Below, piece after piece: positions 27,507-64,000 of a stretch of DNA of 64,000 nt (position 1 is the first letter of the stretch; the number at the start of each line of letters is the position of its first letter). The notes beneath the pieces were generated by a model. It made no database searches, had not been told where the DNA came from, and saw nothing but the letters and a program-made list of their open reading frames with translations. This stretch comes from Escherichia coli O127:H6 str. E2348/69. Its GTDB lineage: Bacteria; Pseudomonadota; Gammaproteobacteria; Enterobacterales; Enterobacteriaceae. Position numbers and translations under genes: made by a program. Location of the stretch: NCBI RefSeq assembly GCF_000026545.1, contig NC_011601.1. The stretch is one strand, 5' to 3'.

Positions 27507-27934
27507 TTATCGGGTCATGTTGATGCCGGATGCTTTCTGCTCCAGCATACGTTTCGCCAAATCCACAATGACGGCTGCGGCTTCAACCGGCGGCGTGCCG
27601 CCCTGGTGAATGTTAGAGATACAGGTACGGTCGGCCTCAACGGTGGTTGCCATACGCGGCGAGTAAACGGCGTAGCAGGAGAGACTTTCTGACTGCCCCA
27701 ACCCCGGACGTTCACCCACCAGCAGGATCACCACTTTCGCGCCAAGAAGTTCGCCAATCTGATCTTCAATCTTCACGCGACCGTAACGCACAAAGAACGG
27801 TGTGCCGACTTTCAACCCGGCCTGTTTCAGGCCCGCCATCAGCGGTGGCAGGATCTCTTCGTAGTTCACGGTGATCGCATCAGTTGACAGGCCATCAGAA
27901 ATAACGACCTGTACGTCCGGATTAGCAACACACT
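27507..27934 (-). pseudogene. eutC: eutC 3' fragment (ethanolamine ammonia-lyase small subunit, C-terminal ~141 aa), separated from its 5' part by the prophage
   Basis: Reverse-strand reading frame ...[31 protein letters not shown]...INMTR* runs straight into the prophage left end. Confidence 0.9.
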
Positions 27935-27948
27935 TGTGGGGTAGTGTT

Positions 27949-28086
27949 CAATTCTGGGCGGAGTTAGTGCAGCCTGGTAGAACCGGCAAGCCTTGTGTGG
28001 CGCGGGGTGTGGTGATTTAGCGTGATTCTGGGCGGATTTGTGAGAAATGACCAAAAACGCTTTTTTTTGCGCTTTTTTCTGGGCGC
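27949..28086 (+). repeat. Prophage left-end repeats: three direct copies of TTCTGGGCG (candidate transposase-binding sites)
   Basis: Copies at 27952-27960, 28026-28034 and 28077-28085. Confidence 0.5.
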
Positions 28087-28246
28087 TTTTGATCTGGTTC
28101 TGCTACAAACTTAACGGGTTTTAAATGCTTTTAAAAAGAGTTTTATCCTTACCCGTTTTCCTCAATTTGTTCTCATCTGTTGTGTTCAGTTTTGTTGTGG
28201 TTATTGCTGATTAGCTAACAGCACACGCCCCGCCAAAACGAGGCGC

Positions 28247-28894
28247 TTATGCTGATTTCTTGTTTACAGGCTTAGTTTCTTGCTCCGGTGTGACGGGAAC
28301 GCGATCACCTGGTGTTCCAGCACAGAAAATGGCTTTGGCGCGGCGCAAAATCTCTTTGTCATTTTCCTCATCGCCAGCTAATGCCATGCAAACAGCGTCT
28401 TTAAGCGATTGCCTGATGTTCAGGCTTTGAATGGCCTTTCTTTGCTCCTCAAGTTCGCTATCGGCTTGCTTAGTTTGCCTGGTGGGTTGCTGTAGGCGTT
28501 CCAAGATTCCTTTAATGCCCATATCGCATATTGCACTTATCAGCTGTTCCTTATCTTCTGTGGACGCTCTTTTCAATAACTCGTTAACTAGCTCGTTTGT
28601 AATATCGGGAGAAGGCTGCGCTGTTTGATTTGATAGAGAACTTTCTTTGGCGATGGGTTCCTCACCGTAAGCAAGCCAATTTAAGCTCACTTGTTCTTTA
28701 TCTGAGATAAGGCAAGCTATTTTAAAAGAAGGCTCTGTTCCTTTATGAATGTAGTTGTTTAAGGTTGAAGGGGGGATTCCCCAATCACTCGCAGCAGTTC
28801 TGACACTACGGTTACCTATCAGCTTTACTAAACGCTCTCTGAAACTTTCTTTTCCCCGGTCGACAAAAGAAAAAGCATCATCATTTCTAGTCAT
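28247..28894 (-). CDS. Putative prophage repressor (c-like)
   Basis: 215-aa ORF divergent from the ner-A-B operon at the left end, the position of Mu c; N-terminal region looks HTH-like. Functional assignment is positional. Confidence 0.55.
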   Translation of the reverse strand: MTRNDDAFSFVDRGKESFRERLVKLIGNRSVRTAASDWGIPPSTLNNYIHKGTEPSFKIACLISDKEQVSLNWLAYGEEPIAKESSLSNQTAQPSPDITNELVNELLKRASTEDKEQLISAICDMGIKGILERLQQPTRQTKQADSELEEQRKAIQSLNIRQSLKDAVCMALAGDEENDKEILRRAKAIFCAGTPGDRVPVTPEQETKPVNKKSA

Positions 28895-29027
28895 TTTTTC
28901 TTTCCTCTATAACTCATTGATTTTAATTGCAAAAACCATATAAAGACCAAAATCAAAAAGAAAATACAAAGAAAGGGCTATTTTTGCTTTACATGGGCTA
29001 TATATGGATCAATACTTATATCCGAAG

Positions 29028-29049
29028 GGATAACACGGCGGTGTTATCC
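29028..29049. promoter_or_regulatory. Candidate operator: perfect 9-bp inverted repeat in the repressor/ner divergent region
   Basis: ggataacac-ggcg-gtgttatcc, with another GATAAC half-site at 29054-29059, just upstream of the ner start. Confidence 0.4.
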
Positions 29050-29077
29050 GCACAGATAACTTTTAAGGGTAACCTAA

Positions 29078-29313
29078 TGATGGTTAGAAATGAAGTAATG
29101 AACAAAGACTGGCACCGCGAGTACATCGTTGCCGCTGTGCACACCAAAGGTTTTACATTGCGTGAACTTTCTGAACGCGCTGGTCTAAAAAAAGACTCTT
29201 TAAAAAATGCACTGTATCGCTCATGCCCTAAATATGAACGCATCATAGCCGATGCTATTGGTGTGGAACCTGCGGAGATCTGGCCAAGCCGGTATGCCAG
29301 TAAGGCGGCGTAA
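29078..29313 (+). CDS. Ner-like DNA-binding protein
   Basis: 78-aa ORF MMVRNEVMNKDWHREYIVAAV...IWPSRYASKAA; the DWHR and IWPSRY segments parallel Mu Ner as I recall it; the track ORF begins further upstream. Confidence 0.75.
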
Positions 29314-61940: not shown

Positions 61941-62533
61941 TGAAACCTGTTTTTGATGAAAATGGACTGGCTACAGTGCCGGGTGATATGCGTTGTTTTT
62001 ATTATGATGCAGTAACGTCTGAATATACGGGCTGGTCTGATGAATATATTAATACTGGCGTAAGTATGCCCGCCTGTTCCACTGGTATTGACCCGGGCGA
62101 AAACATTCCGGGGCAAGTGGCAGTATTCACGGGTAAGGGATGGAGCCATGAAGAGGACCATCGCAATGAGACTGTTTACTCAATCGAAAATGGCGCAGCT
62201 GTTACAGTGGATTATATCGGTGCCATCAAAGACGGTTATGTCACGCTTTCACCGTTAACGCCATACGATAAATGGGATGGTGAGAAATGGGTGACGGATA
62301 CCGAGGCACAGCATAGCGCCGCAGTAGACGCGGCAGAAGCACAGCGCCAGTTGCTGATTGATGCTGCAATGGCTTCCATTAGTCTGACTCAGCTGAAATT
62401 ACAGGCCGGGCGGAAACTGACGCAGGCAGAAACAACCCGGCTTAACGCTGTGCTGGATTACATTGACGCGGTGACGGCAACAGATACCAGCACCGCGCCG
62501 GATATCAATTGGCCTGCTCCCCCGGAGGCGTAG
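61940..62533 (+). CDS. Tail fibre assembly protein U
   Basis: 197-aa ORF directly after S, inside the invertible segment. Confidence 0.7.
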   Translation: MKPVFDENGLATVPGDMRCFYYDAVTSEYTGWSDEYINTGVSMPACSTGIDPGENIPGQVAVFTGKGWSHEEDHRNETVYSIENGAAVTVDYIGAIKDGYVTLSPLTPYDKWDGEKWVTDTEAQHSAAVDAAEAQRQLLIDAAMASISLTQLKLQAGRKLTQAETTRLNAVLDYIDAVTATDTSTAPDINWPAPPEA

Positions 62534-62951
62534 GCCAGACGGGATTTGATGTATCAACGCGCATCAGCAAGACCCGGTATTTTTTCCATTCAGATAACGC
62601 GGCGGTTTCTTCTGCCGTCGCGATTTCCGCATCAAAAGCATCCTGTCTCCAGACTATTTCCTTATCAGCCATAGAACGCAATACCGTTCTTTTCTGTTCA
62701 GCCTGAATAATCTGTTGTTCAGCGGAGAGTGGCGGGATATCAATCCACGCAGGATTACCATTTTTATCAGCCCCCAGCGTTTTGCCTTCTGGCGCTACGC
62801 CTGTGTAAATTGCCATTGTTTCATCATCAACATCAGCGCCATTTTCAGGCCATGAACCGGCGCTGATATATACATCTTTTAGTGCTTCCGGATAGAAAGA
62901 GCCTTTATAAAATTTATTCATTCTTAATACCCCAACGCGATAAAACAACAA
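62505..62951 (-). CDS. Alternative tail fibre assembly protein U'
   Basis: Convergent with U inside the G segment; true start may be the internal MNKFYKGS. Confidence 0.6.
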   Translation of the reverse strand: MLFYRVGVLRMNKFYKGSFYPEALKDVYISAGSWPENGADVDDETMAIYTGVAPEGKTLGADKNGNPAWIDIPPLSAEQQIIQAEQKRTVLRSMADKEIVWRQDAFDAEIATAEETAALSEWKKYRVLLMRVDTSNPVWPTPPGEQAN

Positions 62952-63433
62952 TCTTCGGTGCCCTCTCCGGATGGCGACCAGTTCTGAATACTGATATGCG
63001 TTCTGCTGGCAATACGCACATTCATCGCGGCATTGTAGCCAGATGTTCCACGGTTTCCGGTCGCAAACAAACCTGCATAGGGAAAAGCAAATGGTAAGGC
63101 ATATCCAGCATCAACTCCCTTTTGTGTTGCCACCGTTCCCCACTGCAACATAAGTTGCACCGGGTTTCCTGTCGTCGCAATGCATGGAATGTAGATGTAG
63201 CCATTACCTGACATCATTGACCTGAAGCTGTCTAAATCCAGTAACTTCGAGGCATTATCTGCTCCAACATCTCGTGTTGCAGCGGTCCCTAACTGGAGCG
63301 CATTTCGGAAGGCTGATACATCAGAAATATCAGATCCATTAGCCGATTTCTGCATAGCTCCGGAGGCTTTATCTATCGTTTCTCCCAAACCAACGTTTAT
63401 GAAAATGCAGAAATAACGAGCAAATGGCATCAT
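62924..63433 (-). CDS. Alternative tail fibre variable part S'v (currently not fused to the constant part)
   Basis: 169-aa reverse ORF whose 5' end crosses the right gix site (...NVGLGETIDKAS...), sharing the GLGE junction with S. Confidence 0.6.
   Translation of the reverse strand: MMPFARYFCIFINVGLGETIDKASGAMQKSANGSDISDVSAFRNALQLGTAATRDVGADNASKLLDLDSFRSMMSGNGYIYIPCIATTGNPVQLMLQWGTVATQKGVDAGYALPFAFPYAGLFATGNRGTSGYNAAMNVRIASRTHISIQNWSPSGEGTEDCCFIALGY
63381..63406. repeat. gix-like recombination site, right
   Basis: ttctcccaaacc-aa-cgtttatgaaaa, inverted relative to 61471-61496. Confidence 0.6.
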
Positions 63434-63459
63434 TCCTGCTTTTGTCAGGGTGATCTACC

Positions 63460-63555
63460 ATGTTTATAGGCTATGTACGCGCATCAACAAATGACCAGGA
63501 CACCGATTTACAACGCAATGCGTTGAACTGTGCAGGATATGAGCTGATTTTTTGA
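63460..63555 (+). pseudogene. gin-type serine invertase remnant (31 codons)
   Basis: MFIGYVRASTNDQDTDLQRNALNCAGYELIF* matches the N-terminus of Gin/Hin/Pin invertases including the catalytic Ser9 context, then stops; only about 115 bp remain before the prophage right end. Confidence 0.8.
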
Positions 63556-63590
63556 AGGTAAATCATCAGCATGAGACTAATAATTTAGCG

Positions 63591-63669
63591 TCCAATTCTG
63601 GGCTTTTTGGTTGCGCTCTCTCCGCCCAGAATTGTGCGCCAATTAGCCCAGAAAAAAACGCGAAGTTAC
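63591..63669. repeat. Prophage right-end repeats (TTCTGGGC family, mostly inverted relative to the left end)
   Basis: attctgggc at 63596-63604 (direct), cgcccagaa at 63623-63631 and gcccagaa at 63647-63654 (inverted). Confidence 0.5.
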
Positions 63670-63670
63670 A

Positions 63671-64000
63671 CACTGCGCTTTCAGCGCTTCAACAGCCTCT
63701 GCACACAGGCGGCGGCCCATATCCGGGCGAGTCAGATAGAGATTTTTGTCGCTAATTTCAGAGCGGACTTCCAGCAAGCCCTGCGCTTTCACCCACTCTT
63801 CCGGCACTTCTTTGAGTACGGTGTCTTTCGAACGAGAGTGATCGGCCAGGAAACGCAGCAACGCCTGGGTACGCGGACGCGGACCAGCACGACCGGTACA
63901 GACGCGAGCCACGGTGCTGCGGCGCAGTTCTGTTAATACGTCTGCGCGATGCGGGTTTTCAACGCCAATCCACGCTTTTGCTTCTGCGGAACCTAAATCC
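63671..64000 (-). pseudogene. eutC: eutC 5' fragment (partial; gene start lies beyond window end)
   Basis: Reverse frame ...[40 protein letters not shown]...[12 protein letters not shown] then runs 7 junk codons into the prophage end; joining with 27507-27934 after removing the prophage and one acact copy restores one continuous frame. Confidence 0.9.

Follow-up and report, generated by a model that had tools for sequence, protein, structure and literature searches.

Why does eutC, which encodes the beta subunit of ethanolamine ammonia-lyase, occur in two distant pieces in Escherichia coli O127:H6 str. E2348/69, and what would this mean for the ethanolamine (eut) operon? We have addressed this question in a stretch of 64,000 nucleotides (nt), hereafter the window, in which a prophage of 35,736 base pairs (bp) lies between the two eutC pieces. 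The window is the reverse complement of positions 1429085-1493084 of NZ_CP059840.2, from this enteropathogenic E. coli (EPEC) strain, with one mismatch in 64,000 bases, and carries the distal end of the eut operon on its minus strand. Taken as a whole, the locus is very probably explained by transposition of a Mu-like phage into eutC, with knockout of the eut pathway.

The break was found inside codon 155 of eutC. The minus-strand translation of positions 27507-27935 read KCVANPDVQ...GINMTR*, and minus-strand frame 2 of positions 63640-64000 gave EutC sequence followed by the phage-encoded residues TSRFFLG*. The window holds 330 of the 464 nt of the upstream piece, and the full gene was therefore taken from the E2348/69 record. 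Joining 27934 to 63675 gave a continuous EutC frame, and the removal of 35,740 bases yielded an eutC of 888 nt (295 codons plus the stop codon). The rebuilt gene differed from the intact eutC of strain 2013C-4282 (WP_000372324.1) at 12 nucleotides, all synonymous, and at no amino acid. The rebuilt protein aligned contiguously with the solved E. coli EutC (PDB 5ysn_B and 3abo_B) over residues 1-295 (E ~5e-192), a full-length collinear match, whereas no uninterrupted eutC reading frame was found in E2348/69. An earlier note on this DNA had claimed that the prophage splits eutC, that the pieces can be rejoined in frame, that the C-terminal 141 codons end at 27934 and that the insert measures about 36 kb. 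The 141 sense codons in the 3' piece, the length of the insert and the identity of the rejoined product to intact EutC bear this out, as does the alignment to an intact eutC, which the note had proposed as a check. Among the 5,389 complete E. coli genomes in which the rebuilt 826-nt stretch occurs, 5,380 carry it without a break. The split of eutC is thus confirmed, and chance cannot account for it.

Could the lyase nevertheless be active, either through the two EutC pieces or through EutB alone? In support of this, eutB is intact and the upstream piece can be translated as an N-terminal chimera of 163 amino acids (aa). However, the 3' piece has no start codon, promoter or ribosome-binding site of its own, and in-frame stops lie upstream of it in the phage end. 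Moreover, the break falls within the single EutC domain that covers residues 44-295 in the solved structures, and eutA is broken too (see below). Retention of lyase activity is, in our view, extremely unlikely.

The eutC junction was present in 3 of 5,426 complete genomes, all of them E2348/69 or O127:H6 records, and the 163-residue chimeric product was found on 23 contigs (NCBI, ENA and Logan). The junction loci that were read differed from E2348/69 by 0-2 bases, an inverted segment aside (see below). Such a distribution might also reflect a fault in assembly or a mutation confined to a single laboratory stock, as E2348/69 is a much-passaged laboratory strain and nearly all public junction sequences are identical to it. 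Yet three independent complete assemblies and the contigs from NCBI, ENA and Logan were concordant to the base, and the clean 4-bp duplication described below is the mark of a genuine transposition. This explanation is therefore quite improbable; misassembly can be excluded on the strength of these assemblies and contigs, while a laboratory origin of the insertion is conceivable. Prophage-free alleles, for which the earlier note had suggested a search, were found in the 5,380 genomes with an unbroken eutC, the nearest of them being 98.4% identical over the 826 nt and 97.6% identical over the last 250 nt of the 3' fragment. No closely related prophage-free strain was present among the 5,426 genomes. 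Public data also contain other truncated forms of EutC; one of 106 aa, for example, was recorded on 73 contigs, among them a 4.7-Mb chromosome. Other events have therefore broken eutC in further lineages.

Transposition into eutC was supported by the ends of the element. The nine insertions for which both junctions were read all shared the ends TGTGGGG...GAAGTTACA (...GTTACA), and each had, on its two flanks, a 4-bp direct repeat derived from its own target. At eutC the repeat is CACT. The earlier note had given it as ACACT, one base too many. A 5-bp duplication, with the phage ending in ...GTTAC, was compatible with the first three insertions and failed in five of the next six. The base that precedes the repeat equals the terminal A of the phage in just 4 of the 9 insertions, which is the chance level, whereas the A at 63670 is the invariant final base of the phage. 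The duplication is therefore CACT, and the additional base is a chance match. Empty sites carried the short repeat as a single copy, both at eutC and at mhpT; for mhpT, the predicted uninserted sequence with one 4-bp copy occurred in 1,714 genomes at an identity of at least 99%.

The 4-bp length agrees neither with the duplication of 5 bp made by Mu nor with that of 6 bp made by B3 (PMC8705779), and hence with neither of these two phage groups. The literature searched contained no report of a 4-bp target duplication in transposable phages, and the SuMu paper does not state the length. It appears that the phages of this family form a transposable lineage whose target duplications measure 4 bp instead of 5 or 6 bp. 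Both ends of the element carry TG...CA termini and repeated end motifs. Of the seven copies of the octamer TTCTGGGC in the window, six cluster at the phage ends, the outermost one being 17 nt from either terminus. The copies at 27952-28084 and 63596-63653 are candidate transposase-binding sites (the binding being putative), in an arrangement like that of L1-L3 and R1-R3 in Mu.

The gene content of the prophage (Table 1) pointed in the same direction. The transposase has the architecture of MuA, with the Pfam domains HTH_Tnp_Mu_1 (E 3.8e-10), rve (E 2.2e-4) and Mu-transpos_C (E 6e-16), and the gene for a MuB-type ATPase lies directly downstream of it. Late genes of the Mu type are present, and the size of the genome is compatible with the range of about 36-39 kb. 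No integrase or excisionase was found among the RefSeq-annotated genes of the prophage, and the only broken gene according to RefSeq is an invertase stub. Judged by this content, the prophage looks complete. It also has a DNA methyltransferase gene (41379-42119), just upstream of terL, which is absent from the two related prophages L003 and L004 and is probably cargo.

Prophages related to that of E2348/69 (88-98% identity over the left 3.5 kb) were found at unrelated places in about 60 other E. coli genomes. Their sites include mhpT, scpC, an RHS gene, a PAAR-domain gene, a position next to yfcC, a TonB-dependent receptor gene, ypdF and a lambdoid prophage. We have considered site-specific integration as the alternative mode of entry. 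It was ruled out by the near-random sites, each with its own 4-bp repeat, by the transposase/MuB pair and by the lack of an annotated integrase. The random sites, the TG...CA ends, the short duplication and the transposase/MuB pair therefore demonstrate transposition. In strain TUM1881 (locus pair L007/L008) two matches to the left end of the prophage were obtained, and the two flanks of the related prophage carry annotations as distinct pseudogenes, one a hypothetical protein and the other scpC, with the 4-bp repeat present; a rearrangement between prophage copies is possible there.

The earlier note had stated that K-12 carries a prophage between eutB and eutA, which is correct for CPZ-55, and had taken this as a hint that the eut operon is a recurrent target. 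CPZ-55 lies between eutA and eutB in 8% of 638 strains (PMC6379469). K-12 BW25113, which carries it at this position, does not use ethanolamine and makes no microcompartments; K-12 is Eut-minus until the scarless removal of CPZ-55, which yields an intact eut operon (PMC11334477, PMC7617246). The two prophages are alike in that both interrupt the eut operon and are oriented against it (PMC11334477, PMC7617246, PMC6379469). In contrast, CPZ-55 is a 6.8-kb remnant that leaves eutA and eutB intact and is flanked by an 8-bp repeat, whereas the prophage of E2348/69 is a complete-looking element of 35.7 kb inside a coding sequence. Moreover, CPZ-55 occurs in about 8% of strains and the eutC insertion in one strain background. 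No insertion of the CPZ-55 type was found after the eutA stop codon in E2348/69, where eutA and eutB are adjacent and the sole insertion nearby is a copy of ISEc13 inside eutA.

The frequency of CPZ-55, the presence of two insertions in the eut operon of E2348/69 and the other truncated EutC forms in public data would all fit a preferred prophage attachment site in the operon, or in eutC itself, that is hit repeatedly. The remaining data did not fit. The prophage encodes a transposase together with a MuB-type protein and lacks an annotated integrase; the nine related insertions occupy nine different sites with different 4-bp repeats; the eutC junction is confined to E2348/69 records, with eutC contiguous at this point in nearly all other genomes; and CPZ-55, ISEc13 and the Mu-like phage use unrelated mechanisms at different positions. 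Such a preferred site can be given hardly any probability. The hint of a recurrent target was not upheld, given the unrelated sites of the relatives and the restriction of the junction to the three E2348/69 and O127:H6 records.

The ISEc13 copy in eutA provides a second break in the operon. It lies about 2 kb past the right end of the window (NZ_CP059840.2 1424594-1427557; 595-3558 in locus L002), belongs to the IS4 family, has Tn5-like ends and is flanked by the 10-bp repeat GTCGATAAAC. Its removal restored the 467 codons of eutA, the pieces of which are flagged as pseudogene fragments in RefSeq. Another copy of ISEc13 is located within the window (9637-11186), between ucpA and cysP, with the 10-bp repeat ACAAATGCAG on its flanks; the two copies differ by 2 mismatches in 1,550 bp. 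As read from the DNA, the eut operon carries two independent knockouts, eutC::prophage and eutA::ISEc13. The eutA insertion therefore suggests that the operon is no longer maintained by selection in E2348/69, which fits a loss of selection after the first insertion. All the other eut genes, namely eutSPQTDMNEJGH, eutB, eutL, eutK and eutR (15 genes), are annotated as intact. Since eutA is also broken, the pathway would probably stay blocked after a repair confined to eutC.

This also bears on whether the insertion could be reversible. Removal of the element together with one repeat gives a perfect gene with no amino-acid change, and eutC has not decayed, as might be expected if the prophage were a switch ("active lysogeny") whose precise excision restores eutC under some condition. 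Against such a switch, there is no annotated integrase or excisionase, just 4 bp of homology surround 35.7 kb of phage DNA, all 23 recorded contigs have the junction, and eutA::ISEc13 would block the pathway even with eutC restored. Transposable phages such as Mu replicate without excising, and their precise excision is very rare. A reversible switch has next to no probability, and the insertion would in practice be irreversible. The reconstitution of eutC announced in the earlier note thus holds on paper, but not as a real excision.

Under the preferred reading, Mu-like transposition, a Mu-like phage would have lysogenised an ancestor of E2348/69, its DDE transposase carrying out strand transfer into codon 155 of eutC and the 4 bp CACT being duplicated. 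In the DNA itself, the upstream eutC piece runs into the 163-residue chimera and the downstream piece is startless. The beta subunit of ethanolamine ammonia-lyase would not be made and ethanolamine would not be deaminated. We predict with high confidence that E2348/69 has no functional EutC beta subunit and hence no ethanolamine ammonia-lyase, because the break falls halfway through the only domain of the subunit and K-12, in which the prophage is intergenic, is already Eut-minus. Transcripts from the main eut promoter would run antisense to nearly all phage genes and would be unlikely to reach eutL, eutK and eutR, which would then depend on the weak promoter of eutR itself or on read-out from the phage. 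With moderate confidence, these three genes are expected to have lost transcription from the main promoter, a prediction to which the K-12 case likewise lends support. The earlier note had stated that about 36 kb of phage DNA cut off eutL and eutK from upstream transcription, and the 35.7 kb that separate eutL, eutK and eutR from that promoter are in line with this.

Several points weigh against this interpretation of the locus. The literature contained neither growth or enzyme data for E2348/69 nor a paper on the eutC insertion, as far as it was searched, and the polar effect on eutL, eutK and eutR is one that we infer from the gene arrangement. The repressor gene of the phage points into eutC'-eutL-eutK-eutR, and the terminator-like hairpin that intervenes (28076-28053) is weak. 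For this reason, the lysogenic promoter may drive some expression of eutL, eutK and eutR, which need not be silent. In addition, eutR is still ethanolamine-responsive in K-12 with CPZ-55 (PMC7617246).

These observations raise another explanation, in which the disruption is tolerated or even favoured, because it uncouples the sensing of ethanolamine from its consumption while an intact eutR reports to virulence regulons. The double knockout would then leave a sensor that does not consume ethanolamine, with eutL, eutK and eutR expressed from the eutR promoter or by phage read-out. eutR, eutK and eutL are indeed intact and lie in sense downstream of the phage repressor gene, with the weak hairpin in between. 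Furthermore, in enterohaemorrhagic E. coli (EHEC) ethanolamine induces LEE (the enterocyte-effacement locus) and other virulence genes in an eutB mutant, partly through EutR (PMC3398539, a commentary on Kendall 2012). However, EutR needs adenosyl-B12 as well, two independent insertions look more like neutral decay than design, and the insertion was seen in one strain background only. We consider it unlikely that the disruption is tolerated or favoured for this reason, and the existence of the sensor is likewise doubtful. If true, a sensing-only locus would alter the coupling of gut ethanolamine to LEE expression in E2348/69. The 4-bp duplication, unusual for transposable phages, is better supported than this sensing-only explanation.

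We have also compared the prophage with known transposable phages. Like Mu, it has a repressor/Ner-like pair at the left end, a transposase of MuA architecture followed by a MuB-type ATPase, Mor, the gpT, protease and portal proteins and a contractile tail. It further shares with Mu (saltoviruses) an invertible tail-fibre segment at the right end, TG...CA termini with end motifs, a size of about 36 kb, near-random insertion sites and a short target duplication. Unlike Mu, it makes a 4-bp duplication, has a stub of an invertase, has no annotated mom gene and finds no near-DNA match among deposited phages: when its first 24 kb were compared at the near-DNA level with 50,697 phage records, short mosaic pieces were all that matched. 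The MuA structures matched the transposase just at E ~5e-4. The nearest transposases of isolated phages were 40-49% identical (Pseudomonas VW-6B, Klebsiella ST405-OXA48phi1.1, Yersinia vB_YpM_Tongde and SuMu), so that neither nucleotide similarity nor high protein similarity to Mu, D108 or SfMu was found, the best transposases being below 50% identity and outside the Mu group. Judged by these comparisons, the prophage is of the Mu type but no close relative of Mu.

It also resembles CRP28, CRP49 and CRP99 of Citrobacter rodentium and Sp18 of O157 Sakai, which are likewise transposable prophages at variable sites that inactivate host genes. Mu-like prophages of C. rodentium have been shown to transpose (PMC3072379, PMC10132054). 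In comparison with the Sp18 type, the transposase is only about 44% identical. The relatives L003 and L004, but not the E2348/69 copy, encode a head protein with the accession WP_012904629, presumably a head protein of C. rodentium. The 2009 genome paper on E2348/69 by Iguchi reportedly lists a Mu-like prophage.

The inverted segment mentioned above lies at the right end of the prophage. It is bounded by the 19-bp inverted repeats AAACCTTGGTTTGGGAGAA and TTCTCCCAAACCAACGTTT, at 61478 and 63380, and an exact inversion of 1,921 bp was found between public assemblies that share the eutC junction. The arrangement is like that of the Mu G segment with Gin and of the P1 C segment with Cin, in that tail-fibre and assembly genes converge within a segment of 1.9 kb, which is delimited by short inverted repeats beside an invertase gene. 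In contrast to these switches, the cis invertase has been cut to 31 codons here and in relatives such as CFS3292, no functional invertase adjoining the segment, and both orientations were nevertheless observed. Two further loci of E2348/69 match the 5' end of the invertase. As the cis invertase is a stub and these two loci exist, inversion of the tail-fibre segment is likely catalysed in trans.

Table 1. Coordinates of the eut genes, phage ends and prophage features in the window
Feature	Position	Strand	Basis
eutR, AraC-type activator of the eut operon, intact, 350 aa	25227-26279	-	Open reading frame (ORF) list; RefSeq WP_000753675.1
eutK, microcompartment shell protein, intact	26325-26825	-	RefSeq
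eutL, microcompartment shell protein, intact, 219 aa	26838-27497	-	ORF list and RefSeq
eutC 3' fragment: 141 codons, stop codon and 2 nt of split codon 155	27507-27934	-	Translation; RefSeq pseudogene "missing N-terminus"
Left copy of the 4-bp target-site duplication CACT	27931-27934		Junction comparison
Mu-like transposable prophage, 35,736 bp; early-to-late genes opposite to eut	27935-63670	+	PHROG, RefSeq, ends
Left end, three direct TTCTGGGC copies (27952, 28026, 28077), presumed transposase-binding sites	27935-28084	+	Motif count
Phage repressor, 215 aa; reads toward the left end, in sense with eutC'-eutL-eutK-eutR	28247-28894	-	PHROG 3037, E 4.5e-58
Ner-like early regulator, 78 aa	29077-29313	+	PHROG 769; SfsB/Ner-type NCBIfam match; RefSeq
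DDE transposase, MuA architecture, 680 aa	29313-31355	+	Pfam; PHROG 310, E 4e-195
MuB-type AAA ATPase, 297 aa	31374-32267	+	PHROG 296 "DNA transposition protein", E 1e-104; RefSeq AAA ATPase
Mor-family middle/late transcription activator	38264-38731	+	RefSeq
Lysis genes: two holins and GH108 endolysin	39219-40426	+	RefSeq
Head module: terminase large subunit, DUF935 portal, Mu F-like and G-like proteins, protease, Mu gpT major head protein	42121-49701	+	RefSeq
Contractile-tail module: sheath, tape measure, DNA circularization protein, baseplate, tail fibre	51314-61940	+	RefSeq
Invertible tail-fibre segment, bounded by 19-bp inverted repeats	61478-63398		Inverted repeats; two orientations in assemblies
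Gin/Hin-type invertase stub, 31 codons	63460-63555	+	Sequence; RefSeq pseudogene
Right end, three TTCTGGGC copies (one +, two -)	63596-63670	+	Motif count
Chimeric ORF, 163 aa: EutC 1-156 plus TSRFFLG	eutC 5' fragment + 63643-63670	-	Translation
Right copy of the 4-bp duplication CACT	63671-63674		Junction comparison
eutC 5' fragment, cut by the window end	63671-64000	-	Translation; RefSeq pseudogene "missing C-terminus"

Beyond eutR, a four-gene islet was observed between eutR and hemF (19312-25148), which we take to be missing from K-12 at the corresponding position. It encodes a SNF2-family protein of 1,149 aa, a DUF1963 protein and two hypothetical proteins. The C-terminal half of the SNF2-family protein resembles defence helicases of the ZorD/DpdE type (E 2.5e-124). 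A PADLOC analysis of the four islet genes matched the helicase half of this protein only and revealed no complete known defence system.

This is a classic case of Mu-style insertional mutagenesis in a familiar reference genome, and both eutC pieces are already annotated as pseudogene fragments in RefSeq. The 4-bp duplication and the tail-fibre inversion without a cis invertase are of modest interest for specialists in phages and transposition. Beyond a caution for users of the strain, this is an ordinary insertional knockout that opens no new question. The caution itself matters because E2348/69 is the prototype EPEC strain for work on virulence, human challenge and gut metabolism, and because ethanolamine use and EutR signalling are studied as cues for colonisation and virulence in the related EHEC. 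Two independent insertions very probably make E2348/69 Eut-minus, and metabolic models will be wrong if they treat its eut genes as present.

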